DNA of 64,000 bases, taken from contig JBAQLU010000202.1 of NCBI GenBank assembly GCA_049302065.1, positions 254 through 64,253 on the forward strand, given 5' to 3'. The notes beneath the pieces were generated by a model. The model was not told where the DNA came from. It was given only the letters and a program-made list of their open reading frames with translations, and did not search any database. Shown here in pieces: positions 142 through 39,650 of the stretch. Within the stretch, counting starts at the first letter, position 1. Each line of letters starts with the position of its first letter. This DNA comes from Thermodesulfovibrionales bacterium (GTDB taxonomy: Bacteria; Nitrospirota; Thermodesulfovibrionia; Thermodesulfovibrionales; SM23-35). Made by a program: the position numbers and the translations under genes.

Positions 142-176
142 CTTCTTATTCGTTAGTAAATAAATAAGGCCTTAAA

Positions 177-1956: not shown

Positions 1957-2519
1957 TGCCAAGACCGAAGAAATATAGCTGTATCAAATGCAAACCTGAT
2001 GCTACCTATTTTAAGCCGATAGGCATTATTCATTCCCCGTTCAAGGATGTGCGTGGTATGCCCATCCAGCCGGCAGGCGCCAAGGGTGTTGCGGGAACTA
2101 TAGAAATTGAACCAGACTATATTGATGGCCTCAGAGATATCGAAGGCTTTTCTCATATTATCCTCATTTATCATTTCCACCTCTCCGGCGCATATTCTCT
2201 CTTGGTGAAACCTTTCCTGGATGACACGCTACGCGGTGTTTTTTCGACAAGGGCGCCGAGACGGCCAAATTCTATAGGCGTATCCGTAGTCAGACTGACA
2301 AGGGTGGAGGGGTGCATGCTTTTCATTGAAGATGTGGATATCGCAGATGGTACGCCTCTGCTGGATATAAAGCCTTATGTGCCGGAATTCGATGATAGAA
2401 AAGACGTGCGGACAGGGTGGCTCGCTCACAAGGCAGATAACGTACAATCGGCAAAAGCGGATGAAAGGTTTGGAAGAACAAAAGATACGGTTCAACAGAA
2501 CTCAAATAAAGGAACATGA
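1956..2519 (+). CDS. TsaA/YaeB (TrmO)-family methyltransferase-fold protein carrying a DUF134-like N-terminal 21-aa module
   Basis: Family blocks PIGIIHSPF, GFSHIILIYHFH, RRPNSIGVSVVRL and GTPLLDIKPY. The first 21 aa, MPRPKKYSCIKCKPDATYFKP, mirror MPRPKKFRCVKCKPDTNYFKP of the DUF134 protein at 10866. The stop overlaps the next start (ATGA). Confidence 0.7.
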   Translation: MPRPKKYSCIKCKPDATYFKPIGIIHSPFKDVRGMPIQPAGAKGVAGTIEIEPDYIDGLRDIEGFSHIILIYHFHLSGAYSLLVKPFLDDTLRGVFSTRAPRRPNSIGVSVVRLTRVEGCMLFIEDVDIADGTPLLDIKPYVPEFDDRKDVRTGWLAHKADNVQSAKADERFGRTKDTVQQNSNKGT

Positions 2520-17689: not shown

Positions 17690-17914
17690 ATGTCAGTGGT
17701 AAAATTAGACACAACCGGACTCAGATGTCCCGAGCCGATACTGAAGATTGCTGCAAAATTAATGGATATGAAGCCCGGTGATGTTCTTGAAGTGATCGGA
17801 GATTGTTCGACCTTTGAGCGAGATGTCCGTAACTGGTGTAAGAGGATGAAGAAGACACTTTTGTTTATCAAGGATGAAGGCGCCGGCAGGATAAGTTGTC
17901 AGATACAGTTTTAG
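17690..17914 (+). CDS. TusA/SirA-family sulfur-carrier protein
   Basis: 74 aa with LDTTGLRCPEPILK (the CPxP active-site motif). Confidence 0.85.
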   Translation: MSVVKLDTTGLRCPEPILKIAAKLMDMKPGDVLEVIGDCSTFERDVRNWCKRMKKTLLFIKDEGAGRISCQIQF

Positions 17915-18285
17915 ATATCTGGTGAGGAAATCAAGGCTTATCGAAAAAATGAGATGCTGGGGGTTTCTTAAATGCACTGAAAGGGAAGTCCTGTTTACAG
18001 GATGAATAATGATTTCTTCCGGTGATCCGACAGTCAAAATTCCTGAGAGATCGAGAGTCGAGTTGATTACCAAACTGGAGCATATGGCGAACATGAGCTT
18101 TTCTCTCCGGATTATTTTAGCAATATACTTAAACTTGTGAATAGAAAACAACCTATAAACTGAAATATTAGGATTTGTAATCTAATAAAAAGCTATTGAC
18201 ATTTTCAAAGGAACTATGATATTTTTTCACCTATCCAACGAATAGTACAAGTTCTCATATAGAATTTAAGGAAGGGGAACGGTTT

Positions 18286-19542
18286 ATGAGCGAATCAGCA
18301 AAATGGGATTGGGATACAAAAGATAAATTAGTAGCAAACCTCAATGATTGGAAAAAGAAGTTTATCGACCTTCGTGAATTAACCCCCTCTGATGACGGTG
18401 AAAAAATAGCCGCAGTAGTCCAGCCGGAAAAAGGAAAATTTACCACCTGTGTCAATGGAGATGTCTGGGAAGAGAAGTTTGAGAGAGTATACTCGCTTAA
18501 GTTCAAACCTGATAATCAGCTTATATCTTCAACATACAGAGATTATATATGGGCTTTAGCTGTTGATCATGAGATGTGGGAAGAAACATTTGATTTCATA
18601 TGGAACCTGACATTAACTCAGGATGGAAAAGGTATTGCCGTGAACATCAAACGGGATCCGCAACTTGGAGCTGCATTGAATGGACAGGTGTGGGAGGCCC
18701 TATATATGGATGCAAGACATCTTGCTGTAAGCCCAGATGGACAGAAGACTGCTTCATGTATTCAGACACAACCCATGAAGACATTAGATATTTTTACCTA
18801 TCAGAAAGGTATCTGGACCGTTGCAGTAGATGGAACTCCTTGGGAAAAGACTTTCTGGACTGTCTGGGGACCTGTCTTTAGCTCTGATAGTAATCATATA
18901 GCTGCATGCGTAAGGACAGGGTTTGCTCAATATAATATCGCAGTAGATGGAAACACATGGGAAGGGCCATTTGGTTTAGTGTGGGAGCCAATTTTTAAAC
19001 CAAATAGCAATGATGTCATTGCGCCTATCAGAACTCCGAAGGGCACTACACTCGCAATGAACGGAAAGCCGATCTGGGGATTTTTCTTCAATGTATGGCG
19101 TCAGAGATTCAGTCCCGATGGTCAAAAGTTAGCTGCGGTTGTTGTCCCCGCATTTTCTCGGTGGACAATTGCGGTTGATGGTACACCCTGGGGCACTACA
19201 TTCAGCGATGCAGTTCTCTCTCCAGTATTCAGCCCGAATAACAAACGGGTCGCTGCAGTAGTAAAAGATAACAACAGGTGGTTAGTTGCCATTGATGGTA
19301 CACCATGGGCAGAAAAATTCGATAACGTATGGGACCCTGTCTTTAGCCCTGATAGCAATACAGTGATAGCAAAGGCTGAAAGAAACGGTAAGTTTTATAT
19401 AGTTGTTGACGGTAAGGTTGGCAAAAAAGGGTACGAATATCTGTGGAATCCTGTTTTTAGCTCGGACGGAAAGAAATTGTTAATCCGCTGCGTTGATGGT
19501 GGAAAGTATTACCGGAAAGTAATTCCAATCAATGAAATATAA
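18286..19542 (+). CDS. Cytoplasmic beta-propeller-like protein built from about 9-10 PD40-like repeats
   Basis: Roughly 40-aa periodicity of (S/K)PD(G/S)xxIAxxV...(V/I)AVDGxPWxxxFxxVWxPVF. No signal peptide. Only 14 bp upstream of the HmcE-like gene. Confidence 0.6.
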   Translation: MSESAKWDWDTKDKLVANLNDWKKKFIDLRELTPSDDGEKIAAVVQPEKGKFTTCVNGDVWEEKFERVYSLKFKPDNQLISSTYRDYIWALAVDHEMWEETFDFIWNLTLTQDGKGIAVNIKRDPQLGAALNGQVWEALYMDARHLAVSPDGQKTASCIQTQPMKTLDIFTYQKGIWTVAVDGTPWEKTFWTVWGPVFSSDSNHIAACVRTGFAQYNIAVDGNTWEGPFGLVWEPIFKPNSNDVIAPIRTPKGTTLAMNGKPIWGFFFNVWRQRFSPDGQKLAAVVVPAFSRWTIAVDGTPWGTTFSDAVLSPVFSPNNKRVAAVVKDNNRWLVAIDGTPWAEKFDNVWDPVFSPDSNTVIAKAERNGKFYIVVDGKVGKKGYEYLWNPVFSSDGKKLLIRCVDGGKYYRKVIPINEI

Positions 19543-19556
19543 TGCAGGAGTGAGAA

Positions 19557-20231
19557 ATGTATGACTTTATAAAAGACCCGTCATTATATAATTTCGTGAG
19601 AGGACCATTAGTTTGGATTGCATTTTTTGTATTCATTGGTGGCAGTATCTATAAAATAAGAGAACTGCTTTTACTCGCCAAGAAAGAGAAAGTTGTTTAC
19701 CCCTACATGAGTTTAAAATTTACCCTCCGTTCCCTTTTACACTGGTTCGTACCATTTGCCAGTGCTAACTGGAGAAGGCGCCCTGTAATTACAATAGTGA
19801 CCTTTCTCTTCCATATCGGTCTTGTTTTGCTCCCCATATTCCTCCTTGCACATAACATCCTTATCTACGAATCCTGGAGGATAAGTTGGTGGACAGTTTC
19901 CGAAGGATTGGCAGATATCATGACTATGATAGTCATTGGTTGCTGCATTTTCTTTTTCCTGCGGAGAATTTTTGCTCCAGAAGTAAGATTTGTTACCTTT
20001 GCTGATGATTATTTAATACTCGCAATCGCCTTTTTACCTTTCCTTACCGGGTTCCTCGCATATCACCAGTGGTTATTGCCTCATAAAACCATAGTGATAC
20101 TTCATATGCTTTTTGGGGAAGTTATGTTAATTGCTATTCCGTTTACCAGGTTAGGGCATATGTTTTATTTCTTTTTAACACGGGCATATATGGGTTCTGA
20201 TCATGGTTATCGTCATTCAAAGGACTGGTAA
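19557..20231 (+). CDS. NarI/DsrM/HmcE-like dihaem cytochrome b membrane subunit
   Basis: 224 aa with five hydrophobic helices and conserved His residues (FLFHIG, LLAHN, ILHMLFGE, RLGHMFYF). Confidence 0.75.
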   Translation: MYDFIKDPSLYNFVRGPLVWIAFFVFIGGSIYKIRELLLLAKKEKVVYPYMSLKFTLRSLLHWFVPFASANWRRRPVITIVTFLFHIGLVLLPIFLLAHNILIYESWRISWWTVSEGLADIMTMIVIGCCIFFFLRRIFAPEVRFVTFADDYLILAIAFLPFLTGFLAYHQWLLPHKTIVILHMLFGEVMLIAIPFTRLGHMFYFFLTRAYMGSDHGYRHSKDW

Positions 20232-20256
20232 TTTTAAATTATGGAGGATTATATAG

Positions 20257-21639
20257 ATGGCTGAAGTAAGCATTAAAGAAAGCGTCAAGACAAAAGATTG
20301 GATTGAGCTGAAAAGAAAACCGGTTGCTGATCCAGGCTTTGATATAACTGTTAAAGATCTTACTCCGGAAAAGATAGAAAAAGCAGTAAATGCTGTTTTG
20401 AATATTGGGAAAAATGCAGGACGTTTCATGGCACCCTTAGAGACGTGTATTCACTGTGCGCTCTGTTCTGATGCATGTCATTGGTATCTCTCCCATGACA
20501 AAGACCCTACTTATGCACCTGTTGCCAAAGTTAAAATGACTCTTTGGGAGCTGATCAAAAGAAAAGGGAAGGTAAGCCCTGAATTCATGAAACAGGTTGC
20601 AAGGATTGTCTTTTGTGAATGCAATCTCTGCCGTCGTTGCAGCATGTATTGTCCCTTTGGGCTTGATATAGCCTATCAATTGGGCATGGTCCGCCGCATA
20701 TGTTTTATTCTTGGGTTAGTTCCTCAAAACATACTGGATCAGACCCATAGCCTTTCAGCTACCTTAACCCAGTTATGGATCACCCAGGGTGACTGGATCG
20801 ATACCATGCAGTGGCAGGAGGAGGAGGTAAGGGGGGAGATCAAGAATGTCCGGATTCCTATTGATAAGGAAGGGGCAGAGGTAATGTGGTGTCCTCTGGG
20901 AACAGAACCGAAAGTGGCAACCTATCATATTGCCCGTACAGCGAAGATCATGAATGTTGCGGGGATTGACTGGACTGTAGCTGCCCAGGATGGCTGGGAC
21001 AGTGCAAACATGGGGATGTTTATCCGTGACATGGAGACGATGCAGAGGGTTGTACGGGGCATTTATGACAATGCCATGAGGTTAAAGATCAAACGAATAG
21101 TACTGACTGAGTGAGGGCATCCACTGAATGCCACATGTTATGTGGCACCGCCGCTGATGGGATGGAAGGATAGTCCGATAGAGACATTGCATCCGATTGA
21201 GTTTTATTATGAGCTTGTTAGCACTGGAAAAATAAAGATAGATAAAAATAAGAAGATTAAAGGCCCTATTACCATTCAAGATCCGTGTAATCTTGTAAGG
21301 CTGAGAGGGAGAGCAGAGATGATCCGGTACCTTGTAAACGAGACATGTGAAGGTCCTATTATAGAAATGCAACCAAACCGTGAATATAATTATTGCTGTA
21401 ATGGCGGTGGAGGTGGAAATGCCATTGGCTCGCCATGGAAAGGCAATAGATGTGCAGGAGCCCGTATTAAGGCTGAGCAGATTAAGGCTACTGGGTGTCA
21501 CAATATTTGCGCCCCATGTCATAACTGTTATACCAGCATCAATGATGTAATAAAGTATTACAATCTCGAAGGTCATGCCATGTTTATGGATGAAATAATA
21601 ACCAATACCATGGAAGTTCCCGATGAATTTAAACCATGA
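20257..21639 (+). CDS. HdrD/DsrK/HmcF-like Fe-S (CCG-domain) oxidoreductase with an in-frame TGA (putative selenocysteine) at 21112-21114
   Basis: Track ORFs 20257..21114 and 21142..21639 are in the same frame, separated only by TGA. N-terminal half has CIHCALCSDAC and CNLCRRCSMYCP. C-terminal half has DPCNLVR...YCCNGGGG...CAPCHNC. The context is RIVLTE-[TGA]-GHPLNA. There is no SD or ATG for an independent second ORF. Confidence 0.65.
21129..21147 (+). other. SECIS-like hairpin 14 nt downstream of the in-frame TGA
   Basis: TGCCACAT-GTT-ATGTGGCA, an 8-bp perfect stem with a GUU loop. An alternative 5-bp hairpin GGCAT-ccactga-ATGCC lies at 21116-21132. Confidence 0.5.
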
Positions 21640-21666
21640 TAATAAGCCGGGAAGGATGAGAATATT

Positions 21667-23343
21667 ATGAAAAAAGGGTGGATTGTTTTTATTGTTGGAC
21701 TGTGCTATCTCATCTTGATTATTTACGGCATCGGCAGTATATATTCCAATGAAACCCCAATGGAGGTGAAGAAACCTGTTCAGAAAATCCCTGTTCAAAA
21801 ACTGGATGATAAAATTTCTATTGCCCATACAGCTATCTTTGGGGCATTGGAACGTCCGCAGGTGATTTTCGACCATAAGAAACATATTGATGAATTGATA
21901 AAGGATGGCAAAAAAGAATGGGAGACCTGTGACTCCTGCCATCCCTGGAATGAGGACAAAACGCAAATGTCCTTTATCTTCCCCAAAAAAGTTGCGAAAA
22001 AAGATAAAGATTCCTATATGAATGCTTACCACGATGAGTGCATGAATTGTCATAAAGAGAGAAGCCAGCAGAAAAAGAAGGGTGGCCCGGTGACCTGTGG
22101 CGATTGCCATCCGGAAAAGCTTTCCACAGTGCAATATAAATATCCGATCATGGAGTTCACTTACGAACATCATGACAACCACGATAAAAAATTAAAAGAA
22201 AAGAATATTCAGGATAGCTGTATTTACTGCCATCATATATATAATGAAGAAAGTGTTTATGAAAAAGGAAAGGAATGGTCATGTTATTACTGCCACGAGA
22301 TAGGTAGGAAGACAGGACCGGTTCTTGCAGTTGAGACAAGAATTATCGGTAAGAAAGGCCTCGGTTTAGAAAAAGTCTCCCACATGCGCTGCCTGAACTG
22401 CCATCTTTACTTTAAAAAGCAAGATGAAGGAAAGATCAAGGCAAAAGACGAAAAAGAAGCTCCCCTTGAATGTGTGAAATGCCATACTGGCAAATACAAG
22501 ACAGTTGCCGAACTGGAAAAGGTTCCACGCCCTGACAGCGGGCAGTCTGAAAAGGCATTTTTAGAGATAGAAAAGTCCAAGATGAAGGGGGTTCCGTTTG
22601 ACCATAAGGCCCATCAAACCAAATCCAAGACATGCAGGGGATGCCATCACGAAACACTGAACGCATGCAAGGAATGTCATACGCTTGTTGGAAATCCTGA
22701 CGGTAATAACGTCAATCTTGCCGGCGCTTACCATGATATTTCCTCTGAAAAAAGCTGTTCAGGATGTCATTTTGTGCAGCAATCTGCAAAAGATTGTAAT
22801 GGGTGCCACCATGCTCTTATGCCTGTTGATGCCCAGACAAAAGGACCAAAGAAAGCAATCTGTGCAATCTGCCATTCCGGAAAGCGCGAACTTCTTCCTG
22901 CAACAAAGCTTTCTGTGAAAGGACTCGATACAGAGAAGGTCAAAAAGGAGGTTGAAGTAAAGATTCTTGAGAGAGAATATGACCCTTCAAAATTACCTCA
23001 TGTGAAGATCATCGAAAAAATGACACAGATCTCGAACGATGACAAATTGGCTTCCTATTTCCACAGGAATCTCCAGACTCTCTGTGAAGGATGCCACCAC
23101 CAGAGCAGGGCCGAGGCTGAAGCCAAGAAAGACGAGCCGCCCTATTGCAGGAACTGCCATTCCATTGCTTTTGATCCGCAGCGCCTTAACAGGCCGCGGC
23201 TTCTTGCTGCTTATCATCGCCAGTGTATACAGTGTCATGAAAAGATGGAACTCAAGAAACCAAAGGAATGTAAGGAATGTCATAAGGAAAAGGAAGTGCG
23301 CCCGACGGATATTCTTTCAAAACCAGCGGAAACAAGCCGGTAG
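21667..23343 (+). CDS. 16-haem c-type cytochrome (HmcA-like) with N-terminal signal/anchor helix
   Basis: 558 aa. I count sixteen CxxCH motifs (CDSCH, CMNCH, CGDCH, CIYCH, CYYCH, CLNCH, CVKCH, CRGCH, CKECH, CSGCH, CNGCH, CAICH, CEGCH, CRNCH, CIQCH, CKECH). Hydrophobic N-terminus. Confidence 0.85.
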   Translation: MKKGWIVFIVGLCYLILIIYGIGSIYSNETPMEVKKPVQKIPVQKLDDKISIAHTAIFGALERPQVIFDHKKHIDELIKDGKKEWETCDSCHPWNEDKTQMSFIFPKKVAKKDKDSYMNAYHDECMNCHKERSQQKKKGGPVTCGDCHPEKLSTVQYKYPIMEFTYEHHDNHDKKLKEKNIQDSCIYCHHIYNEESVYEKGKEWSCYYCHEIGRKTGPVLAVETRIIGKKGLGLEKVSHMRCLNCHLYFKKQDEGKIKAKDEKEAPLECVKCHTGKYKTVAELEKVPRPDSGQSEKAFLEIEKSKMKGVPFDHKAHQTKSKTCRGCHHETLNACKECHTLVGNPDGNNVNLAGAYHDISSEKSCSGCHFVQQSAKDCNGCHHALMPVDAQTKGPKKAICAICHSGKRELLPATKLSVKGLDTEKVKKEVEVKILEREYDPSKLPHVKIIEKMTQISNDDKLASYFHRNLQTLCEGCHHQSRAEAEAKKDEPPYCRNCHSIAFDPQRLNRPRLLAAYHRQCIQCHEKMELKKPKECKECHKEKEVRPTDILSKPAETSR

Positions 23344-23369
23344 AAATCCGGTAGAAAGAGGAGGATTGG

Positions 23370-23483
23370 ATGTATATCTTTGAACAACTATTTTCCCATC
23401 ACGGATACGAATATGCTGTTGCCGTTTTGGCAATGTTTATTTTTATATTATTCTATTTTATCCTCACTTCAGAAAGAAAATAA
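23370..23483 (+). CDS. 37-aa single-helix membrane peptide (possible HmcD-like small subunit)
   Basis: Absent from the ORF track because it is under 60 aa. AGAGGAGG SD 5-6 nt before the ATG. MYIFEQLFSHHGYEYAVAVLAMFIFILFYFILTSERK has one hydrophobic helix. Confidence 0.45.
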   Translation: MYIFEQLFSHHGYEYAVAVLAMFIFILFYFILTSERK

Positions 23484-23502
23484 ATGGCATGGAGGCTAAC
23501 TC

Positions 23503-24531
23503 ATGAGTATTGATAGAAGAGAATTCCTGAAGCGCTCTTTAACCATGGCAGGCACTACATTGCTCAGTGGTGGAACCATAGCCCATGCTATAGATAAACG
23601 TGATCCGTCCATTCTCTCTACCGGCAACACAGCCAATGAAAGAAACTGGAAGTTATGGGTTGAGAAGTCTGAGACCCTTGTTCCTGAAAAATATGGAGTT
23701 CTTGTTGATACAACGGTCTGTATCGGATGCCGGAGATGTGAGTGGGCATGCAATGAATGGAATAAAAATCCAAACAGACCGATAAAAGAGTTTGAAGCGT
23801 CGGTATCTCAGCAAAAATCTGCTTTCGATACGGTGCGGAGAATGCACGCCGGAAATTTTACCGTAGTAAATCGCTATATGAGCTCCAAAGACGGAAAACC
23901 TATATATGTAAAAAGGCAGTGTATGCACTGCGATGATCCGGGGTGTTTATCTTCGTGCTTTGTTGATGCATACAGGAAGGCGAAAAACGGTCCGGTTCTC
24001 CATAATGCAGGAGTGTGTATAGGGTGCCGTTATTGTATGGTAGCCTGTCCTTTTGACGTGCCTGCCTATGAGTATTACGCACCCCTGAATCCGCAAATCA
24101 CAAAATGTACGTTCTGCTTCGATAGAATCTCGAAAGGAAGTGTGCCGGCCTGTGTCGAGATTTGCCCCGCCGGAGTACTGACCTTCGGAAAAAGAAACGA
24201 TCTCATGAAGCTTGCTTACGAAAGGATAGGAAATAGCCCTAATAAATATGTCGATCATGTATATGGAGAGCACGAGGTAGGAGGTACAAGCTGGCTCTAT
24301 CTGTCATCAGTTCCTTTCCACGAAATAGGTCTGAGAACAGATCTCGGGAAAACACCTATACCGGAACTAACCAAGGGGTTTCTTCTTGGAGTAAAGGTGT
24401 TCGAGATAGTCGCTGCATGGCCTCTTGTTTTCGGGGCCTATTATGCAATCTCAAAGGCTCGTGAAAAAACAAGATCGGGACATGAAACGTCTGTTGAAGG
24501 AAAGGGAGAAGGTCATGGCGAAAAACACTAA
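23503..24531 (+). CDS. Periplasmic 4x[4Fe-4S] ferredoxin subunit (HmcB/DsrO/NrfC-like) with Tat signal and C-terminal anchor helix
   Basis: DRREFLKRSL twin-arginine motif. Cys clusters CIGCRRCEWAC, CMHCDDPGCLSSC, CIGCRYCMVACP and CTFC...CVEICP. Hydrophobic VFEIVAAWPLVFGAYYAI near the C-terminus. Confidence 0.85.
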   Translation: MSIDRREFLKRSLTMAGTTLLSGGTIAHAIDKRDPSILSTGNTANERNWKLWVEKSETLVPEKYGVLVDTTVCIGCRRCEWACNEWNKNPNRPIKEFEASVSQQKSAFDTVRRMHAGNFTVVNRYMSSKDGKPIYVKRQCMHCDDPGCLSSCFVDAYRKAKNGPVLHNAGVCIGCRYCMVACPFDVPAYEYYAPLNPQITKCTFCFDRISKGSVPACVEICPAGVLTFGKRNDLMKLAYERIGNSPNKYVDHVYGEHEVGGTSWLYLSSVPFHEIGLRTDLGKTPIPELTKGFLLGVKVFEIVAAWPLVFGAYYAISKAREKTRSGHETSVEGKGEGHGEKH

Positions 24532-25729
24532 TTCTTGGTTTAGAGAAAAGATACTTCTTGGAAAATCCAATAGAGATTTTATTATCAGTTGTGCTACACC
24601 GGGGAATTTCATTGCAGGTTTTATTCTGTTCTATGCGGTTATCGTAATGATTTATCGTCTTTTCTTTGGCCTTGGACCAGCGACAAATCTAACAGATAAC
24701 TATCCATGGGGTTTCTGGATCGGATTTGATATACTTGTCGGAATCGCGTTAGCAGCTCCGGGTTTAACCCTTGGAACAGCAGTACATCTCTTTGGGATGA
24801 AGCAATATCACCATTTTGTACGTCCGGCGATTCTCTCAAGCCTTCTCGGGTATATTTTTGCGGTATTTGCACTTCTGTTTGACCTTGGCCGTTATTATCG
24901 CATCCCTTACCTCTTAGTATGGTCGTGGGGATTTTCTTCAGTATTGTTCTTAATAGGTTGGCACTTTACGCTTTATATTAATATTTGTCTCATTGAGTGG
25001 AGTCCTGCTCTCTTTGAATGGTTGAATCTCAGGAAGCTCCGGGAATTTTTTCAAAAGATGGCGATATGGGCAACCATTTTCGGAGTCATTATAGCCGGTG
25101 GCCATCAGTCTGCACTTGGTGGTTTGTATCTTATTGCTCCTGCAAAACTCCATCCCCTCTGGTATTCAATGTTCTTGCCTGTATTTTTCCTCCTGTCCGC
25201 TGTATTCGCAGGAATTTCTATGGTGATTTTTGAGAGTACCATTACCCACAGAGTTTTCAAAAGTCAGCTTAAAAATTTCAATCAAGCTGAATTTGACAAA
25301 CGCACCATTGGCCTCGGTACGGCAGCAGCAGCAGGTTTGTTCATCTATTTTATTCTAAAAATATTTGATATTGCTCATTATGGCAACTGGGCATATCTGA
25401 ATACTTTCTATGGATTCTGGTATTTGGTTGAGGTAATTGGGTTTGTTCTCCTGCCGGCTATGCTCTTTACATCGGGAGTAAGAAACCGGAATGCAAAGCT
25501 TATACGTCTTACAGGATTTTTGACCGTATGTGGTGTTATATTAAACCGATTGAATATATCTATCTTTGCATATAATTGGCAATTCCCCGCCTCAATGAAG
25601 TATTACCCAAAATGGATGGAGATTATGCTGTCAATCGGCGTGGTTACTATGGTAGTTATTGCCTATCGGTTTATTGTAAAACGGATGGCTATCATGCACG
25701 ATCACCCTGATTATGAATCAGGGCACTAA
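24515..25729 (+). CDS. NrfD/PsrC/HmcC/DsrP-like polytopic quinone-interacting membrane subunit
   Basis: Highly hydrophobic multi-helix protein. The in-frame ATG at 24515 with a GGGAGAAGG SD gives a 17-nt overlap with the upstream gene. The track start at 24425 is rejected. Confidence 0.8.
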   Translation: MAKNTNSWFREKILLGKSNRDFIISCATPGNFIAGFILFYAVIVMIYRLFFGLGPATNLTDNYPWGFWIGFDILVGIALAAPGLTLGTAVHLFGMKQYHHFVRPAILSSLLGYIFAVFALLFDLGRYYRIPYLLVWSWGFSSVLFLIGWHFTLYINICLIEWSPALFEWLNLRKLREFFQKMAIWATIFGVIIAGGHQSALGGLYLIAPAKLHPLWYSMFLPVFFLLSAVFAGISMVIFESTITHRVFKSQLKNFNQAEFDKRTIGLGTAAAAGLFIYFILKIFDIAHYGNWAYLNTFYGFWYLVEVIGFVLLPAMLFTSGVRNRNAKLIRLTGFLTVCGVILNRLNISIFAYNWQFPASMKYYPKWMEIMLSIGVVTMVVIAYRFIVKRMAIMHDHPDYESGH

Positions 25730-29700: not shown

Positions 29701-32700
29701 CTATTCCGCGTAGAGAATGATATCGTTTTTCTTCTCTGCGATTTCCATGAGCCGGCTGATGATATGTGCACGGTTCTTCACGATACGGGGGAGCTTTGCA
29801 AACTCCGGCGCAAGCAATATCTTTTGAAGCTCCGCCCTTAATTTACTGCGCGCAGGAATGCTCTCCCAGAAACCGGTGAGTTTCAACTCTCGCTCTACAG
29901 CCAGAAAAGCCTTCTGCGTCAGGTCAACCAAATGGCTGATCCTGTCCTCCCGGCTTATACCATAGGGCGGTGTCGCCTCAGCAACCTTCAACAGATCAAA
30001 GACATTTCCTGCAGTTCCTTCACCAAATATCTCCCGCTCAAACATACGGAAGAACGGCATTTGCTTCTTCCGGTGAAGCCCATAAGTCGGCTCCTTTCCG
30101 GCGTTGATGATCCGTGCCCTGAGCTTTTCGAGCTCTTCGTAAATCTTTTTCCAGTTGTTGCGGAACTCCTCAAAGATCTTCGCCAATGCCTCGGCAAAAG
30201 AGGCCTGCAAATCCGGGTCGTCGTCCAATTCTATGTCGAGGTGGTGGCGAATGGCGTGTTCAACCTCCGCAGCCTTGGTCTTGGTGCGGTTTCGTTTGCC
30301 CACCTGCTTCTCAAAGTCTTGATCAAGGATCGAGATCGGTTCGATCTTCACGTCGATCCCTTTTGACTCAAGCCAGGCGTCAGTAATACTACGCAGCTTG
30401 GGCGGGATGCCTTTCATGCTCAGCCGCTCGTCCCGAAAGTGCTTCCCGGCCAGCACATTGATCTCGTTAAGTGCATTGTAGTCACGCATGTACTCCAGAG
30501 CCTGCCTGGCAGGGAAAACCAGATTCAGGCACTTGGTCAGCTTCTTGAACGCCAGCATGAAGTCGAACCGCAGGTCTTCGTCATAAAACAGGTCGAAAAA
30601 CGCATCATGATCGGTCAGGTCTGTCAGGCCGTGCTTTTTGAGCAGGTCCATGATCGCCGCATGGCTCGCCTTGAGTTCGCGCAGTTCTTCCTCGGGAAAA
30701 CTGAGGGCATCGAGCACTTCCTTCTGTTCCCGCTCGTCGTAGTTGTCGATCGCCTTTTTGAGGTGGTGCCCGACACCGACATAATCGACCACAAAGCCCT
30801 TGTCCTTGGCTTCACCTGCCACGCGGTTCACACGGGCAATGGCCTGAAGGAGGCTGTGCGCAACGATCACCTTATCGAGATACATCACCTGTTCCACCGG
30901 CGCATCGAAGCCTGTCAGGAGCATGTTATTGACGATCACAATACCCATATCGCCCGTAACCCCTTCATCTTCATTACCAAAGGCCATCTTAAAGCTCTTG
31001 ATGCTGGTCTCGTGCTTTGACCTGTCCGAAAAGGCCTTGAGGTGCGGCAGGTCATTGTGGCTGCCAGAGATGATAACGTCTGTTTTCAGCCTTTTGAGTT
31101 GGTCAAGATCGAGCTTCTGCGGGTTGGCCTTTTCCAGATCAACAAAGGTATCCGCCAAGGCGGCATCGATATATGTTTTATATCGCACCGCAGCCTCTCG
31201 TGAGGTGGCAACTACCTGTGCCTTATATCCGTTGGGGAAGACATGCGTCAGGTAGTGGTCCACCATGTCTTTGGCCTTGGCCTCGATGGTAGTCTTGGAT
31301 TCCAGATAGGCATCGCGGGAGCCGTAACCAAGGATCTCCATACGCTGCTTCAGGTTATAGTCGCTGAACACATCCTCAAACGCCGCGTCCATCCCTTGCC
31401 GGTCCTTGACCTCGGCCTTATGCGTCCGGCCTTCATAAACGATCTCCAGGGTCACTCCGTCTTCGATAGACTGGCGCATGGTGTACTTGTCTATGTAGTC
31501 GCCGAAGACCCGTTCGGTCTTGTCAATGGGAGTGCCGGTGTAGCCTATCCGGGCAGCATTGGGCAGGCCTTTGTCAAAGTTTGCGCCAAGCTGCGCGTAT
31601 TGGGAACGGTGCGCCTCGTCGGTCATCACCAGAATGTTAGGGCTGGTGTTCAGCTCTGGGAAGACCTCGGTCAAGTCGGCTTCGCGGAACTTGTGGATCA
31701 TAGCCATGACCAGATCAGAGGAGTCTGAACGCAGGAGTTCCTTCAACTTTTTAATGCTGTCAGCTACTTTCACGGTAAAGCCGATGCTCTGGCTGGTCTC
31801 GGAGAGCTGGCCTTCCAGTTGGGTCCGGTCAGTAACAAAGACCACCTTCCAATGCGATAGATGGGCGTGGCGATACATCTCGCGCACCATAAACATCATG
31901 GTCAGCGATTTGCCCGATCCCTGAGTATGCCAGATGACGCCACTCCTCTCGCGCGGGCTCTTTCCTTCCAACAGTCGCTTGACCGCCAGTTTGACGGCGC
32001 GGAATTGCTGGTAGCGACCCACGATCTTGATGGTCTCGCCCTTATCGTTCGTTCCGAAGAGGGTAAAGGTTCGAATGAGGTCAAGCAGGTTGTCGCGGTC
32101 CAGCATCCCTGCAACCAGTCGCTGCTGATCATTCGGTCCGCTCGTGCCGTGATACAGGTCGTCAACGGTTCGGGGATAAGGGTCAGCCCAGCGATAGAAG
32201 TATTTCTCGCTGTGGGTTGTGATGGTGCCGAACTTTGCTTCCTGGCGGCAGGTGGCGATAACGATCTGGTTGTAATAAAACAGCGGTGCGCTGCCTTCGC
32301 CTTTTGCACCGCGCTGTTCGCTATATCGAAGCATCTGGTCAATGGCTTCAGGAATGGCGTCTTTCACCTTGGGTGATTTGCACTCGATTACAACCACAGG
32401 CAGGCCGTTCAGAAACAGCACGATGTCTGGGACGATGTGGTATTCAGTGCCAAGGATGCGCACCTTGAATTGGCAGACAGCAATAAAGCGGTTGTTGTAC
32501 CGATGTGTGAAGTCCACAAAACGAACTGTCGGACTTTTCTCGCCGGTCTGGCGGTTTTCGCTGACACTGGTGTTTTCGAGCAAGAGGGTGAAGACGTGGC
32601 GGTTGTTCTGGATCAGGCCAGTGCCAGGGAAACTGGCAGTGAGTTGCTTGACAACCTCTTCCACCTGATCGTCTTCCAACCAGTCATTGATGACTTTGAT

Positions 32701-32892
32701 TTGCTCACGCAAGACCGACAGCATCACCACTTCGGTAAAGCTCTGGCGAAAGCTGTCACTCGGGTGCTGTTTGCTGTCGAGGTCGAGGATTTCCCAGCCC
32801 AAGCCCGCAAGCTGGTCGAGTAAGGGTTTCTCGACGTGCTTGCGCTCGTCTATTCTCAAGTACGAAGTTTGAGGGGTAAAGTTTGAAGTCAC
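29701..32892 (-). CDS. hsdR: Type I restriction enzyme R subunit
   Basis: 1063 aa. N-terminal PD-(D/E)xK region VPDIVLFLNGLPVVVIECK, SF2 motifs HTQGSGKS and MTDEAHRSQ, and a helical C-terminus. GTG start overlaps the upstream stop (GTGA). Confidence 0.92.
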   Translation of the reverse strand: MTSNFTPQTSYLRIDERKHVEKPLLDQLAGLGWEILDLDSKQHPSDSFRQSFTEVVMLSVLREQIKVINDWLEDDQVEEVVKQLTASFPGTGLIQNNRHVFTLLLENTSVSENRQTGEKSPTVRFVDFTHRYNNRFIAVCQFKVRILGTEYHIVPDIVLFLNGLPVVVIECKSPKVKDAIPEAIDQMLRYSEQRGAKGEGSAPLFYYNQIVIATCRQEAKFGTITTHSEKYFYRWADPYPRTVDDLYHGTSGPNDQQRLVAGMLDRDNLLDLIRTFTLFGTNDKGETIKIVGRYQQFRAVKLAVKRLLEGKSPRERSGVIWHTQGSGKSLTMMFMVREMYRHAHLSHWKVVFVTDRTQLEGQLSETSQSIGFTVKVADSIKKLKELLRSDSSDLVMAMIHKFREADLTEVFPELNTSPNILVMTDEAHRSQYAQLGANFDKGLPNAARIGYTGTPIDKTERVFGDYIDKYTMRQSIEDGVTLEIVYEGRTHKAEVKDRQGMDAAFEDVFSDYNLKQRMEILGYGSRDAYLESKTTIEAKAKDMVDHYLTHVFPNGYKAQVVATSREAAVRYKTYIDAALADTFVDLEKANPQKLDLDQLKRLKTDVIISGSHNDLPHLKAFSDRSKHETSIKSFKMAFGNEDEGVTGDMGIVIVNNMLLTGFDAPVEQVMYLDKVIVAHSLLQAIARVNRVAGEAKDKGFVVDYVGVGHHLKKAIDNYDEREQKEVLDALSFPEEELRELKASHAAIMDLLKKHGLTDLTDHDAFFDLFYDEDLRFDFMLAFKKLTKCLNLVFPARQALEYMRDYNALNEINVLAGKHFRDERLSMKGIPPKLRSITDAWLESKGIDVKIEPISILDQDFEKQVGKRNRTKTKAAEVEHAIRHHLDIELDDDPDLQASFAEALAKIFEEFRNNWKKIYEELEKLRARIINAGKEPTYGLHRKKQMPFFRMFEREIFGEGTAGNVFDLLKVAEATPPYGISREDRISHLVDLTQKAFLAVERELKLTGFWESIPARSKLRAELQKILLAPEFAKLPRIVKNRAHIISRLMEIAEKKNDIILYAE

Positions 32893-33743
32893 GTTTTTTT
32901 CCTGGATAGTGGCAATGCCTTTTTTGATCCCGGCGGCAGGAAGCTCTCTCCGGTAACAATCTTTTTACCTGTTTTTGCTTCCAGTTCACGCCTTGCCTTT
33001 TTGGCAATGCCGCCGCCTTTTTTACCGGCAACCTTGTTTTCTTTCATTCCGGCGGCTTTCATGGTCTCCGCTATTTGCCGCGTGGAAAGTTCGGCAAGAG
33101 CGGTAAAGATCAGTTCGGCCTCGGTCATATGATCTCTGAGGTTTTGCGTTTTCAGCCCTTTCATTTCCTTATGCTTTTTTACGGAGACATCAGCCCATTC
33201 CTGATGAATAATATTGATCAATATAGCGTATTCCTCTTCTTCTTTAATCTCATGATCTTTCCAATAATCCGTCAGTTTGTTGCGGGTCTCCTGCCCCATC
33301 ATCCGCTGCTGAATCCATTTTTCGCTTCTTCCATGCTGTTGCCAGTATTCCCGCGCCCTGTCTAAAGAACGCGCCGGGTCCGCCATGTCCTGCATACGTT
33401 CATAGCCGACTTTAGCCAGCCATAGTTTGATCGGCTCCGCCTTGGGGCTGGGAACGGACTGGATAAGACGCAAAAGCGTTTCAGGATCAGCGACATCGGT
33501 AAGGTATTTTTTACCGTCGGCCGCTTCCATTTTCAGTCGGTGACAATTTGTCACCGACTGACTTCCTTCCTTTTTCAGCCGTTCCTTCAGTTTGTTCCAG
33601 TATTTCCGCGCAGTCTGGTAATCAGGCTGCTGGATTAACACCTGAATAATATCCACTACAGAGAAATACCATGTTTCAGATTTCTCATCATAAACTCTCC
33701 GTATTTTATAATCTTCAAATACAGCCAGCGAGTTTTCTTTCAT
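32889..33743 (-). CDS. Bro-N domain protein (antirepressor-like)
   Basis: LAVFEDYKIRRVYDEKSETWYFSVVDIIQVL matches the Bro-N pattern. Long helical C-terminal part. Translationally coupled to hsdR. Confidence 0.65.
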   Translation of the reverse strand: MKENSLAVFEDYKIRRVYDEKSETWYFSVVDIIQVLIQQPDYQTARKYWNKLKERLKKEGSQSVTNCHRLKMEAADGKKYLTDVADPETLLRLIQSVPSPKAEPIKLWLAKVGYERMQDMADPARSLDRAREYWQQHGRSEKWIQQRMMGQETRNKLTDYWKDHEIKEEEEYAILINIIHQEWADVSVKKHKEMKGLKTQNLRDHMTEAELIFTALAELSTRQIAETMKAAGMKENKVAGKKGGGIAKKARRELEAKTGKKIVTGESFLPPGSKKALPLSRKKT

Positions 33744-33769
33744 CTTCCGCTCCCTTTATCCCTTTTCTA

Positions 33770-33952
33770 TCAGGGTTTGATATAGGCATTCAGGCCGATG
33801 ATGACAGGTTTGTCGTTTACTTTGGCGGTGGTAACAGCATTTCCCCTCGTGCTCGCAACCACAAGTGTTTTGCCGGATGCCGACGGAGTGGGCGTTTCCA
33901 GGTCAATTTCGATATAAAGCTTGTTGTCCTTGATTTCAACTTTCATTGCCAT
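33770..33952 (-). CDS. 60-aa hypothetical protein
   Basis: AAGGAGA SD 7 nt before the ATG at 33952. MAMKVEIKDNKLYIEIDLETPTPSASGKTLVVAST... The track ORF upstream extension is read-through from the hsdR fragment. Confidence 0.5.
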   Translation of the reverse strand: MAMKVEIKDNKLYIEIDLETPTPSASGKTLVVASTRGNAVTTAKVNDKPVIIGLNAYIKP

Positions 33953-34016
33953 TGGTATATCTCCTTTTCTTGATTGATTTTGATTCCATTGCTTTGCTGC
34001 GTGCCTCAATGAAGCC

Positions 34017-34127
34017 GTCGAGGTCGAGAATCTCCCAGCCCAGCCCGGCAAGCTGGTCGAGCAAGGGTTCCTCGACGTGGTTGCGTTCGTCGAGTTTGAT
34101 GTGCTGATGTGTTTTGTCCAGGGTCAT
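34017..34127 (-). pseudogene. Remnant of an hsdR 5' end (first ~37 codons)
   Basis: MTLDKTHQHIKLDERNHVEEPLLDQLAGLGWEILDLD compares with hsdR ...YLRIDERKHVEKPLLDQLAGLGWEILDLD. The nucleotide sequences of 34017-34090 and 32775-32850 are visibly near-identical. Confidence 0.75.
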
Positions 34128-34159
34128 ATATTTGCCTATTTTAATAACCTACAGACCGC

Positions 34160-35269
34160 TTATCGTAAAGTTCTCGTCTCGATCTCTCGAACGAGGCTTT
34201 CGATGTCCTGCCCAGCAAAGGTATTATTTCTTCGCCAGCCAGATCTGATTTGTTTCTCAACATAAAGTTCCCTGTCCCTAGCACTTGCGCAGATGCGGTA
34301 GCTGGTTTTAGCAATTAATGTTGGGAACCCGTCCACAACCTGCCAGTCATGGATAGACGGAGCCAGTCTTCCGAGATGCGCGAGAAAAGCAGCTGTGGAC
34401 TCAAAGCGCTGTCGTGGTAACCTGTTACATGCTTTTGTAACCGTGCGACGTAATGGACCGCAAACCCACGGTGGTAGCGTCCCGCTATCAATGACACGGC
34501 CTCGCTCAATCTTAGCTGAGATGGTTTGAGTAGCGTAGATTGATCTATCAACATCTCCTTGAATTGCAAAATACTTCTTCTTTTCCCTCTTATTGAGCCA
34601 GGCGTTCTCGTCATATGGTAAGTAGCCTCCCAGAAGTTGAAACAGTAGTACCCCAACCTGGTAGAGATCGCCTGCGACACCGTACTGATTGCTGCTGATC
34701 GATTCCGGTGGTCGATATATTAGCGAGTGGCCAGACCCTGGAACTGTTTCCATTCCATGTGGTATTGCTTTGACCGATCCGAAATCGCCAATAAGTGCCC
34801 GTCCTCTTTGATCGATCAGGATGTTCTGTGGTTTCAAGTCCCGATGAAGAAGTCTATGGGAGTGTAAATCAACAAGCCCGGCCAAAACTTCCTGTGTGAG
34901 TTTCACTGCATGCTTGTTGCCAGAGACACCTCCCGTGCCAATGAGATCTTCCATGTCGCCGTTCGGATAAAACGGAGTAACGAAATAGGCGTACTCATGG
35001 TCGACGTATGCAGCATCGAGAATCTGAACCACGTGATCGGACCGAATGGCTGCCAAGTTACGTGGTTCTGCGTGGTACTGAGGGTCGTTTCCCCAGTAGT
35101 AAAATTTGACTGCGACTCTGCGATTATGGACCCGATTCTTGCCGAAGAACGTGTATCCGTTCGCTCCCTTGTCGCAGACCTTGTCAATGTCAATGCTTGC
35201 GGACAGGTCACCGAGCTTCAGTTTGATACTCTCCGGAATAGCGAGAAGATTTACATTAATTTTGCTCAT
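34160..35269 (-). CDS. Hanks-type Ser/Thr protein kinase with a unique C-terminal domain
   Basis: VAVKFY (catalytic Lys), HRDLKPQNILI, GDFGS and YRPPE. About 100 aa of C-terminal sequence with no recognised family. Confidence 0.85.
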   Translation of the reverse strand: MSKINVNLLAIPESIKLKLGDLSASIDIDKVCDKGANGYTFFGKNRVHNRRVAVKFYYWGNDPQYHAEPRNLAAIRSDHVVQILDAAYVDHEYAYFVTPFYPNGDMEDLIGTGGVSGNKHAVKLTQEVLAGLVDLHSHRLLHRDLKPQNILIDQRGRALIGDFGSVKAIPHGMETVPGSGHSLIYRPPESISSNQYGVAGDLYQVGVLLFQLLGGYLPYDENAWLNKREKKKYFAIQGDVDRSIYATQTISAKIERGRVIDSGTLPPWVCGPLRRTVTKACNRLPRQRFESTAAFLAHLGRLAPSIHDWQVVDGFPTLIAKTSYRICASARDRELYVEKQIRSGWRRNNTFAGQDIESLVREIETRTLR

Positions 35270-35682
35270 TCATCTTCCAGTGCGGTAAGGGCCGTGAAGA
35301 AGGCATCGCGTTGGTACTGATTGAGAGCAGCGGGCGCTGCATCGGGATTCTTCTTTGATACAGTTGCTATTGTCTGTGGTGACAACAGGTGTGTATCGCA
35401 TATTTCAATGAGCTGAATGATCCCCTCCATCTTAAAACTGACAGGTCCCCCCGCGAATTTACCCTTTCTCCCTCGCTTTTTGATCGCGATCCGGTCAATT
35501 CCATGGTATTTGATTAACGCAGTCATCGCATCCCGGAAGGCCCGTACTTGTCCAGAGTCCTCATCATCAGGTAGAGTGATCTTCCGTGGTTCGCTGTCAA
35601 TCAAGCTCCATGACGTCTGTGTGCCATCCAGAATAACAACTATTGCATCATGCCCTACCAATTCAATTCCGCAAATCTTCAT
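35266..35682 (-). CDS. 138-aa hypothetical protein (DUF3010-like by recollection)
   Basis: MKICGIELVGHDAIVVILDG... AGGGAGA SD. The stop overlaps the kinase start by 4 nt. The family assignment is from memory only. Confidence 0.5.
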   Translation of the reverse strand: MKICGIELVGHDAIVVILDGTQTSWSLIDSEPRKITLPDDEDSGQVRAFRDAMTALIKYHGIDRIAIKKRGRKGKFAGGPVSFKMEGIIQLIEICDTHLLSPQTIATVSKKNPDAAPAALNQYQRDAFFTALTALEDE

Positions 35683-35762
35683 TATCTCCCTTGCGAACGG
35701 GGCAATTCACGGCTTACCCCGAAGTCTTTTATGTTGGGTAGTTGCCCAATTGCCCAAACGAC

Positions 35763-36929
35763 TCAACCTCTACCCTTGGTATATTTCACGATTCGTGCCT
35801 TCTTTTCTTCAAAAGCTTTGATCGGCTCAGGGATCGGCGGAAATAGCTGATGGAAGCCGCCGTGGATATTGCAGGCCATCTTTAATAGTGAACTCAACAG
35901 ATTGTGTGAGCTTTGCTGCGTCTCGTGTATGTGCTGCTTCAAGCGTACAGTTGTGTCGCCGCTGTCATCAATATACTGTTGATCCACCTCGCCACCGTTG
36001 TGTTCGTACACGTGGCGACGATGAAACATCAGGGAGACGAAACGGCATTCGTTTTCTTTCATGCCCGAGCATACATCGATATCAAACCAGTTCCGGAGGG
36101 TCTCGCGCACCTCTGATAGATTGTGAAAGCGCTGCTTTAACAACCGGTTTTTTCGGCGCTCCGTTAGAGGTACCCTATCGGCCAGTTGTTTTGCATACTG
36201 CGCCACGAAGGAATCGAAAGATGACACAGCATCCCTGACGCAATCCTCTGGAGCATTGCCAGCGTTGAGGCGTTCACGTATGGTCGGCACTGTTTCGCCT
36301 TCGAAGTCTGCCAGATCATTGCGGGTTCCACACTTTGAGCAGTAGCCAAATCGGCCTAAGATATCGTTGAATTCCTCACAGGCCCTACAGGTGAATTTGC
36401 GCTGTTGACTTTGTTCGGACACATAGAAGCTGGGCTTTTCGCCTTCCTTGCCCACGGCTTCGGCGACCGCATCCATGTCGATCACGACTTCGCCATCCTC
36501 CACGGAATCCAGAGCCTCGCTCAGGACTTCACAGTAGTGACGCACATAGCGTAGTTGAGCTTCCGAAAGGAATTGATAGCCAGGTTCCGTGGTAGCGCAA
36601 TAAGGGCATATGTTGGGCAATGGGCCACTGCGCCAATACCCGTTGCAGTGCGGGCAGTGCTGCCCAAACTTGCCTTGACTATCGGAGGCAATGAATACAG
36701 GAAAGCAGCCGGGGATAGGCGGAGGGTTCCACGGCTGCCCTATTCCACCTAGTTGGATCTGAGCGACGGGCACACCTTGTGGCAAAGCGTATATCGCGAA
36801 GATCACCAGCGGCACAGGACGGCTTGAGCTAAAGCCCACTTGATACGAGCGATGGCCTTTATCGTCAGTCTTAATGCCGAAAGTGATTTTGCCCCCTGAG
36901 TGACCGATTTCCTCAAATTCGCTGACCAC
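35763..36929 (-). CDS. 388-aa hypothetical protein with two zinc-ribbon motifs
   Basis: CPHCNGYW-x-CPYC and CRACEEF-x-CSKCG pairs, with a helical C-terminal half. GTG start with a GGAGAG SD. Confidence 0.6.
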   Translation of the reverse strand: MVSEFEEIGHSGGKITFGIKTDDKGHRSYQVGFSSSRPVPLVIFAIYALPQGVPVAQIQLGGIGQPWNPPPIPGCFPVFIASDSQGKFGQHCPHCNGYWRSGPLPNICPYCATTEPGYQFLSEAQLRYVRHYCEVLSEALDSVEDGEVVIDMDAVAEAVGKEGEKPSFYVSEQSQQRKFTCRACEEFNDILGRFGYCSKCGTRNDLADFEGETVPTIRERLNAGNAPEDCVRDAVSSFDSFVAQYAKQLADRVPLTERRKNRLLKQRFHNLSEVRETLRNWFDIDVCSGMKENECRFVSLMFHRRHVYEHNGGEVDQQYIDDSGDTTVRLKQHIHETQQSSHNLLSSLLKMACNIHGGFHQLFPPIPEPIKAFEEKKARIVKYTKGRG

Positions 36930-36987
36930 GTTGCTCTCCTAATATACAAAGTCTAATAGAATTTATCGTATAATCCATGGTTTCCCA

Positions 36988-38265: not shown

Positions 38266-38305
38266 TTCACTCTTCCCCCTGCAAACTTCACCCCTGATCC
38301 TGCAC

Positions 38306-39523: not shown

Positions 39524-39570
39524 ATCTATCGTATTATTGCCGATATTATTACCTATTCTTAACAATTCTA

Positions 39571-39599
39571 AGTATATATTAAATAATAATAATTAACAA
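39571..39599 (-). promoter_or_regulatory. Possible internal sigma70-type promoter in the AT-rich hsdM-fic spacer
   Basis: On the minus strand, TTGTTA-N17-TATACT. Flanked by three ATCGGCAA(A/T)A direct repeats. Confidence 0.3.
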
Positions 39600-39650
39600 T
39601 ACAAAAGAATACTATTGATACTTTATTGCCGATATATTTGCCGATGTTTT

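Follow-up and report, generated by a model that had tools for sequence, protein, structure and literature searches.

A TmcB-like iron-sulfur subunit with a predicted selenocysteine, split into two open reading frames in Thermodesulfovibrionales

The 64,000-nucleotide stretch analysed here (hereafter the window; positions 254 to 64,253 of contig JBAQLU010000202.1, assembly GCA_049302065.1) comes from a Thermodesulfovibrionales bacterium of the phylum Nitrospirota. It carries at 20257..21639, on the forward strand, an iron-sulfur protein gene that is listed as two separate open reading frames (ORFs) because of an in-frame TGA. The data reported below indicate, with a probability of about 0.93, that this region is one mis-split gene encoding a TmcB-like protein that contains selenocysteine (Sec). 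The product, identified by translation, Pfam and NCBIfam models and homologues, would be a 460-residue member of the HdrD/DsrK/HmcF family with Sec predicted at residue 286. Four elements of this interpretation are direct observations: the alternation of Sec and cysteine (Cys) codons at one position among relatives, the conservation of the reading frame, the conservation and covariation of a hairpin directly downstream of the UGA, and the content of the operon.

A single reading frame interrupted by TGA

The ORFs 20257..21114 and 21142..21639 (+) share one frame, whose sole interruption is the TGA at 21112-21114. Translation from ATG 20257, which is preceded by a GGAGGA Shine-Dalgarno (SD) sequence, runs into this codon in the context ...KRIVLTE-[TGA]-GHPLNATCYVAPP..., beyond which the frame stays open for 174 more codons up to TGA 21637-21639, for a total of 460 codons. 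The in-frame UGA, aligned with an invariant Cys column in relatives, is predicted to be read as Sec and to form the motif TE-U-GH (residues 284-288, U being Sec). It is separated by a spacer that encodes G-H-P-L-N (21115..21128) from a predicted hairpin at 21129..21147. A preliminary description of this DNA, made from its letters alone, had pointed out that the two ORFs are in one frame with only TGA between them and that the second has neither ATG nor SD sequence. Translation, with its 460-codon read-through, bears out the first statement. As to the second, the mechanically listed ORF starts at GTG 21142, which sits within the 3' arm of the hairpin, and none of the motifs GGAG, GAGG and AGGA occurs in the 20 nt upstream of it.

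A reassignment of UGA in the genetic code was considered and ruled out on two grounds: the gene itself terminates at a TGA, with a TAA behind it, and a scan of the 31 long TGA-interrupted frames of the window found only two that are gene-like, the tmcB-like gene and a DsbC-like gene described below. On the opposite strand, an ORF of 366 codons (21082..22182) is antisense to the tmcB-like gene and to the hmcA-like gene that follows it, and extends across the Sec site; as a shadow of these strongly supported plus-strand genes, it almost certainly does not code for protein.

Sec and Cys codons at one position among relatives

A homologue search covering 5.8 billion proteins retrieved full-length homologues of 436-466 residues that share 50-73% identity with the read-through protein and cover 94-100% of it, together with nearest relatives (79-95% identity) that are all called as proteins of 281-288 residues. 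In a first alignment (A1), the 21 full-length sequences all have Cys, within xECGH, at the column of the UGA, and the shortened ones all end in ...LTE. In a second one of 55 sequences (A3), E282, C283, G284 and H285 are invariant. The motif E-C-G-H, which the preliminary description had ascribed to related CCG-domain proteins, is thus present at this column, with Cys throughout. The possibility, also raised there, that homologues might be genuinely split at this point was looked at in the same sequences, and the Cys forms turned out to be single proteins without exception.

At the nucleotide level, 114 related loci were fetched and the aligned codon could be read in 104 of them: it is TGA in 85 loci, TGC in 10 and TGT in 9, while neither TAA nor TAG occurs, even though the TGA loci cover a range of 59-97% identity. 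Of 80 TGA loci, 77 have a further 170-183 codons before the next stop, compared with 172-179 codons in the Cys loci; the remaining ones run into a contig end or, in the case of L021, have an additional TAG 17 codons past the UGA that points to decay or an assembly error. Between the TGA and the earliest codon at which translation could restart lie nine codons that are conserved in their amino acids (G-H-P-L/R-N/F-A-T-x-x) but vary at synonymous sites (CCA/CCT/CCG/CCC; CTG/TTG/TTA), a pattern that a translation stop at the TGA cannot explain. In a neighbour-joining tree, the sequences fall into two large Sec clades with Cys outgroups, one Sec clade having a nested Cys subclade and the other a sister Cys subclade. 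Three metagenome-assembled genomes (MAGs) contain both a Sec form and a Cys paralogue (L013 and L016 in MAG117, L018 and L022 in MFD04408.bin.2.178, L021 and L025 in MFD05942.bin.3.50). In these genomes, the Sec form lies in a tmcDCB context and the Cys paralogue in other gene contexts; the Cys paralogues may be a back-up for low selenium.

These data bear on a first alternative, in which translation really ends at the TGA and re-initiation at GTG 21142 or nearby yields the CCG half as a protein of its own. Such an arrangement has a precedent, as the ferredoxin and CCG modules of methanogen Hdr are carried by separate subunits, HdrC and HdrB, and public gene callers do annotate two genes at every TGA locus. 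However, a genuine split would have to account for a stop that is TGA in all 85 loci and never TAA or TAG, for the protein-level conservation of the nine codons that precede the first in-frame start and complete the ECGH motif, and for a candidate start that lacks an SD sequence and falls within a hairpin arm. In addition, the starts called for the "second gene" vary between loci (28, 28 and 40 nt past the stop in L004, L005 and L001, respectively), and all Cys relatives are fused, including some that are nested within Sec clades. A genuine split like that of HdrC and HdrB is therefore very improbable.

A conserved hairpin downstream of the UGA

Fourteen nucleotides past the TGA lies a perfect 8-bp hairpin, TGCCACAT-GTT-ATGTGGCA in DNA form, whose RNA (UGCCACAU-GUU-AUGUGGCA; 21129..21147, +) ends in a GU-initiated triloop. 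From its sequence, fold and covariation, it is predicted to be a selenocysteine insertion sequence (SECIS). Published constraints on bacterial SECIS (bSECIS) elements (PMC13188914) are a loop of 3-9 nt, a stem of 4-16 bp, a spacing of 16-37 nt and a minimum free energy of -7.5 or lower, with a G within the first two loop positions followed by G or U. The hairpin satisfies them with its GUU loop, its 8-bp stem, an apical loop 22 nt after the UGA and a free energy (dG) of -9.9 kcal/mol for the hairpin alone. The hairpin noted in the preliminary description, 8-bp and perfect with a GUU loop, is therefore present where it was placed; it fits the bSECIS model and covaries. As a background, a perfect hairpin of at least 8 bp meeting the same constraints follows 0.16% of the positions of the window and 4 of its 2635 TGA trinucleotides. 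The fold of the whole 71-nt region is no more stable than that of its shuffles (z-score 0.25), so that the evidence lies in this particular hairpin and in the comparison of loci.

The comparative data are of two kinds. Among 73 distinct Sec sequences, the codons that form the stem are frozen at synonymous sites (GCC in 71 of 71, ACA in 70 of 72, GTG in 73 of 73), whereas nearby codons for these amino acids, taken as controls, use three or four synonyms, and the Cys loci show neither the synonymous freeze nor the hairpin. Furthermore, over 61 distinct sequences, 97.5% of the cells of the eight stem pairs are paired, and three pairs show compensatory changes: the apical U-A becomes A-U in 22 sequences, an A-U becomes U-A and the outer U-A becomes C-G. 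None of 500 column shuffles reached the observed values, sliding the 3' partner by 1-3 columns lowers pairing to 19-59%, and RNAalifold predicts the same helix.

Codon usage is also biased around the hairpin. The GGG that immediately follows the UGA (21115-21117) is found in 72 of 73 Sec sequences, making this codon of the spacer almost invariant in Sec loci, whereas Cys loci use a mixture of GGA, GGG, GGT and GGC. The CCG CCG codons past the hairpin (21148-21153) are biased as well (columns 10-12 and 43-48 of alignment A2). A lower stem pairing GGG with CCG CCG was examined as a candidate and is not claimed: 82.6% of its cells are paired, it shows zero covariation and departures from it are simply unpaired cells.

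A search of a representative library with the N-terminal part of the protein returned mostly fragments and one useful product (P0248/L116). This locus (114..1421, +) encodes an HmcF-like homologue with 39% identity, next to a PAS histidine kinase, and reads ...VSVTE-TGA-GGG-CAC-... at the equivalent column. Fifteen nucleotides past its UGA lies an 8-bp hairpin, GCGCUUCG-GUU-CGAAGCGC, that matches the hairpin of the window in stem length, GUU loop and spacing but has an entirely different stem sequence. This locus is the strongest single item for a conserved RNA element. Since L116 has TGA at the TE-x-GH column, predicted Sec at this site is not confined to the TmcB clade of Nitrospirota.

Protein family

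The read-through protein contains two [4Fe-4S] ferredoxin motifs (Pfam Fer4_8/Fer4_17, residues 61-137) and a single Pfam CCG stretch (residues 338-428), in which one complete CCG motif can be read (DPC...YCCNGGGG...CAPCHNC), with its five cysteines at positions 341, 378, 379, 424 and 427 of the read-through. Its best NCBIfam match is TmcB (NF045724), with 547 bits over positions 3-429 of the 430 of the model, followed by HmcF (NF045711, 356 bits) and DsrK (NF045796, 176 bits). The last two scores are under the respective equivalog cut-offs of 750 and 400 bits, and so is that of TmcB (cut-off 735 bits), which makes the protein TmcB-like rather than a curated equivalog. Its features, one complete CCG motif together with a residue at the T/GECGH position (TE-U-GH), fit the TmcB/HmcF/DsrK group. 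The label "HdrD/HmcF-like" given in the preliminary description thus stands as far as the family is concerned, but the closest member is TmcB and not HmcF.

Selenocysteine decoding and the weight of the evidence

Three lines of evidence give good, if indirect, support to Sec decoding in this lineage. The first is the second gene-like frame found in the scan of TGA-interrupted frames, which lies at 56372..57127 (-) and encodes a DsbC-like periplasmic thiol:disulfide isomerase of 251 residues with the predicted active site U-P-Y-C. It is listed as a 156-residue ORF that ends at the TGA (56716-56714, -; context ...VIVFDDPD-[TGA]-PYCEKL...). A hairpin at 56698-56681 (CUUCAUC-AGGA-GAUGAAG), whose loop starts 22 nt past the UGA, has a fold z-score of -3.06, and ten of ten aligned homologues have C-P-Y/F-C. 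The second case of TGA and hairpin, proposed at 56714 in the preliminary description, is thus real and constitutes a Sec/Cys pair in a DsbC-like protein. The second line comes from a contig of a related MAG (L115), the TmcB of which is 79% identical to that of the window. In this contig, a SelD gene (2480..3530, -; TIGR00476, 364 bits) lies divergently upstream of tmcD and has itself an in-frame UGA at the catalytic position (SSCAG-U-AAKFGP). Thirdly, Sec decoding has been reported in Nitrospirae (PMC13188914).

Two observations concern the surroundings of these genes. Directly upstream of the DsbC-like gene and on the same strand, the window carries a release factor gene (57203..58282, -; 359 residues, PCRF and RF-1 domains, listed with a TTG start). 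The SelD of L115 is called as an N-terminally truncated AIRS protein of 322 residues, and is followed by a TauE-family gene.

Several points weigh against a Sec-containing TmcB-like protein. No selA, selB or selC/tRNA-Sec gene was found in the 64-kb window (ARAGORN detected no tRNA and Rfam no families); in Nitrospirae, selC may lie within selB. None of the 30 window ORFs scanned with Pfam matched the SelA, SelB or SelD families; these ORFs were unrelated and included NTP-transferase/kinase, NamZ, HsdS, Fic, sigma-54 activator, PdxA and release factor proteins. Three of the eight stem pairs of the hairpin are invariant and the stem is highly conserved, which is partly confounded with the conservation of the protein sequence A-T-x-x-V-A. 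As to the family, the score of 547 bits stays under the TmcB equivalog cut-off of 735. Finally, we infer the actual incorporation of selenium in the TmcB-like protein, and the catalytic role of the residue and the nature of the substrate would follow from the literature and from homology.

The first of these points would also suit a second alternative, in which the UGA is read through without Sec, with a near-cognate insertion of Cys or Trp stimulated by the hairpin, or is decoded facultatively to give truncated and full-length products depending on selenium. Hairpins in general can stimulate read-through, and several MAGs hold the TGA form together with a Cys paralogue, as is typical under varying selenium availability. 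Against this, two hairpins with unrelated stems share a bSECIS geometry of the SelB type, homologues always have Cys, the classic counterpart of Sec, at the UGA column, and one relative encodes a Sec-type SelD adjacent to the operon. Moreover, the window has a second selenoprotein gene of the UxxC type, likewise with a 22-nt spacing, and a published selenoprotein family shares the motif UGH. Non-Sec or facultative read-through therefore retains only a slight probability. The last alternative, a pseudogene or an assembly or sequencing error combined with a chance palindrome, is negligible: a single window cannot exclude an error and the 71-nt region does not fold better than its shuffles (z-score 0.25), but TGA and hairpin recur in 85 independent contigs that stem from many samples and assemblers and keep the downstream frame intact; their 59-97% identity range excludes copies of one assembly, and a hairpin of this kind has a chance frequency of 0.16%.

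Gene neighbourhood

The tmcB-like selenoprotein gene belongs to a hybrid operon (17690..25729, +) made up of genes for TusA-like, TmcD, TmcC, TmcB(Sec), HmcA-like, HmcB-like and HmcC-like proteins. It lacks the gene for the tetrahaem cytochrome TmcA as well as those for HmcD, HmcE and HmcF. The TusA-like sulfur carrier is encoded at its upstream edge, directly before the tmc genes (17690..17914, +; Pfam TusA 3.4e-19; NCBIfam TusA 49 bits, not reaching the cut-off of 78). Next come the TmcD-like subunit (18286..19542, +; NCBIfam TmcD_fam 486 bits, above the cut-off of 440) and a TmcC-like cytochrome b membrane anchor of the NarI/HdrE/DsrM type (19557..20231, +; NCBIfam TmcC 295 bits, above the cut-off of 240; weak match to Pfam Nitrate_red_gam). 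Judging from sequence, this anchor is the partner of the predicted selenoprotein.

Downstream, an HmcA-like multihaem periplasmic cytochrome c of the 16-haem type and 558 residues (21667..23343, +; NCBIfam HmcA 455 bits, above the cut-off of 400; Pfam Cytochrom_CIII) is followed by an HmcB-like periplasmic iron-sulfur subunit (23503..24531, +; NCBIfam HmcB 361 bits, below the cut-off of 420; Pfam Fer4_11) and by an HmcC-like membrane subunit of the NrfD family (24425..25729, +; NCBIfam HmcC 471 bits, below the cut-off of 550; Pfam NrfD). The alignment with the HmcC model begins at residue 58 of this last ORF, and the true start of the gene is probably downstream of TTG 24425. The hybrid arrangement recurs in four related loci (L001, L004, L005 and L018). 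In the first of these, a 74-codon gene occupies the position equivalent to that of the TusA-like gene and adjoins dsrC.

Beyond the operon, the window contains a cluster resembling a defence island (29701..42341, -). It encodes a type I restriction HsdR protein (29701-32892), a Bro-N protein, a Ser/Thr kinase (34160-35269), HsdS (36988-38403) and Fic (38306-39565), and includes an 896-codon ORF (39651-42341, -).

Proposed mechanism and implications

A sequence search of the PDB with the single protein returned only a match of the ferredoxin domain, to succinate dehydrogenase. A profile search reached EtfD and HdrB (E 2.4e-9 for EtfD, 9ojn), and in the profile alignment with EtfD the leading Cys of the CxxC in TCPHC falls into the Sec column. 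The AlphaFold2 (AF2) model of a Cys homologue with 72% identity (predicted local distance difference test, pLDDT, 90.6) matches the folds of EtfD, LutA and HdrB. According to Foldseek, the C-terminal 260-290 residues share the HdrB/EtfD fold (E 1e-12 to 1e-4). A comparison of the N-terminal pseudo-CCG half with the C-terminal CCG by hhalign, looking for an internal repeat, was not significant (E 0.05, probability 1%). The alignment that it produced, to be taken as a hint only, sets E-C-G-H-A on P-C-H-N-C.

The T/GECGH Cys of this group has received a specific interpretation. According to Barbosa et al. (2024, PMC10861901), DsrK, HmcF and TmcB each have only one CCG motif and therefore a single noncubane [4Fe-4S] cluster. 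The T/GECGH Cys was proposed to be catalytic beside this single cluster and, tentatively, to be a ligand of it, which would explain the "open" S=1/2 electron paramagnetic resonance (EPR) signal of as-isolated DsrK and TmcB (PMC10861901).

Combined with the gene content, these proposals allow the following model to be drawn. During translation, the hairpin at 21129-21147 would act as a bacterial SECIS and recruit SelB and Sec-tRNA(Sec) to the approaching ribosome, so that the UGA at 21112-21114 would be decoded as Sec. The product would be the cytoplasmic TmcB-like subunit of a transmembrane electron-transfer complex of the Tmc/Hmc type. Its partners in this complex would be TmcD and the cytochrome b anchor TmcC, together with the multihaem cytochrome HmcA, HmcB and HmcC on the periplasmic and membrane side. 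This subunit is predicted to hold two ferredoxin-type [4Fe-4S] sites and a complete CCG motif, which binds the catalytic noncubane [4Fe-4S] cluster in relatives, and Sec would replace the sole surviving Cys (T/GECGH) of a degenerate second CCG motif. Together with the noncubane cluster, Sec286 may then serve as the redox-active nucleophile in the reduction of a substrate disulfide or trisulfide, with the transient formation of a selenosulfide. The substrate would most plausibly be DsrC-trisulfide or a sulfur carrier of the TusA/DsrC type, because a TusA gene is adjacent in the window and dsrC is adjacent in L001.

A bolder version of this model is unlikely, but it would have specific consequences. 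In this version, the selenol of TE-U-GH ligates, or reversibly docks on, the unique iron of the noncubane cluster, and sulfur bound to DsrC or TusA is reduced through a selenosulfide throughout the clade. If so, the protein would hold a naturally selenium-ligated noncubane cluster, a clade of Nitrospirota would use a Tmc/Hmc hybrid complex to reduce DsrC- or TusA-bound sulfur via a selenosulfide intermediate, and the pairs of Sec and Cys paralogues in single genomes would amount to a natural experiment on the mechanism.

Sec nearly always substitutes redox-active or metal-binding cysteines. Sec and Cys have been exchanged repeatedly at the T/GECGH position, in two TmcB-like clades and in one HmcF-like relative, which provides independent natural evidence for the 2024 proposal that the lone Cys of DsrK, HmcF and TmcB is catalytic. 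For physiology, the data point to a selenium-dependent respiration of sulfur compounds in this lineage, with the Cys paralogues as a likely back-up. They also have a consequence for annotation. At least 85 public contigs split the gene into ORFs of 285 and about 160-170 codons, among them NCBI MAG records titled "4Fe-4S dicluster domain-containing protein", which leaves a respiratory complex with a wrongly described catalytic subunit throughout Thermodesulfovibrionales/Nitrospirota.

Comparison with known systems

The closest known selenoproteins are the Fe-S oxidoreductases of the GlpC family (COG0247), which have been listed among bacterial selenoprotein families since 2004 (Kryukov & Gladyshev 2004; Zhang et al. 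2006, PMC1794560) and whose Sec motif is UGH according to a 2026 review (PMC13188914). The statement of the preliminary description that COG0247/GlpC proteins are a reported selenoprotein family is thus supported by the literature. They share with the protein of the window the ferredoxin and CCG architecture, a single Sec in U-G-H, Cys homologues that form a Sec/Cys pair and a bacterial SECIS directly past the UGA. The likeness is one of motif and architecture, and a putative correspondence of the Sec column with that of the reference member WP_174406253.1 is supported by the identical motif and by the HmcF-like L116, which has its TGA at the equivalent column. Sec at this site is therefore not new in kind. 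The protein of the window differs in being of the TmcB type and from Nitrospirota/Thermodesulfovibrionales, and its gene has those for a membrane cytochrome b, for TmcD and for an HmcABC module as neighbours. Sec-containing HdrD and HdrF have also been annotated in Desulfobacterium autotrophicum (PMC2702500). The searched literature neither links TmcB with a Sec residue nor mentions DsrK with Sec, and does not tie the "UGH" selenoprotein family to the proposal of a catalytic Cys in single-cluster HdrD-like enzymes. The context of a TmcB-type membrane complex in Nitrospirota/Thermodesulfovibrionales appears to be unreported in that literature.

TmcB of the TmcABCD complex of Desulfovibrio vulgaris and HmcF of HmcABCDEF give the best NCBIfam matches and likewise have one CCG motif and T/GECGH; the TmcC and TmcD neighbours in the window exceed their respective cut-offs. 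For both complexes, an electron transfer from periplasmic cytochromes c to a cytoplasmic thiol/disulfide substrate has been proposed. The characterised TmcB and HmcF have Cys in T/GECGH (PMC10861901), whereas the protein of the window is predicted to have Sec. Moreover, TmcABCD includes the tetrahaem TmcA, whereas the window encodes an HmcA-like 16-haem cytochrome with HmcB and HmcC, in the order D-C-B-HmcA-B-C.

DsrMKJOP is a menadiol:DsrC-trisulfide oxidoreductase (PMC10861901). Its subunit DsrK has a single CCG motif for a noncubane cluster and a strictly conserved GECGH Cys that is proposed to be catalytic, and the gene order of the window (cytochrome b, HdrD-like protein, cytochrome c, iron-sulfur protein, NrfD) parallels M-K-J-O-P. 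Unlike DsrK, the protein of the window reaches only 176 bits with the DsrK model (cut-off 400), and its cytochrome is a multihaem protein of 558 residues instead of the trihaem DsrJ.

Lastly, HdrB and HdrD of methanogens and the mycobacterial EtfD (5odc, 9ojn) share the C-terminal fold with the protein of the window, the Sec column of which corresponds to the first Cys of a CxxC. HdrB, HdrD and EtfD keep two complete CCG motifs and two noncubane clusters, whereas in the protein of the window one of the two motifs is down to a single residue, Cys in some relatives and, as predicted here, Sec in the others.

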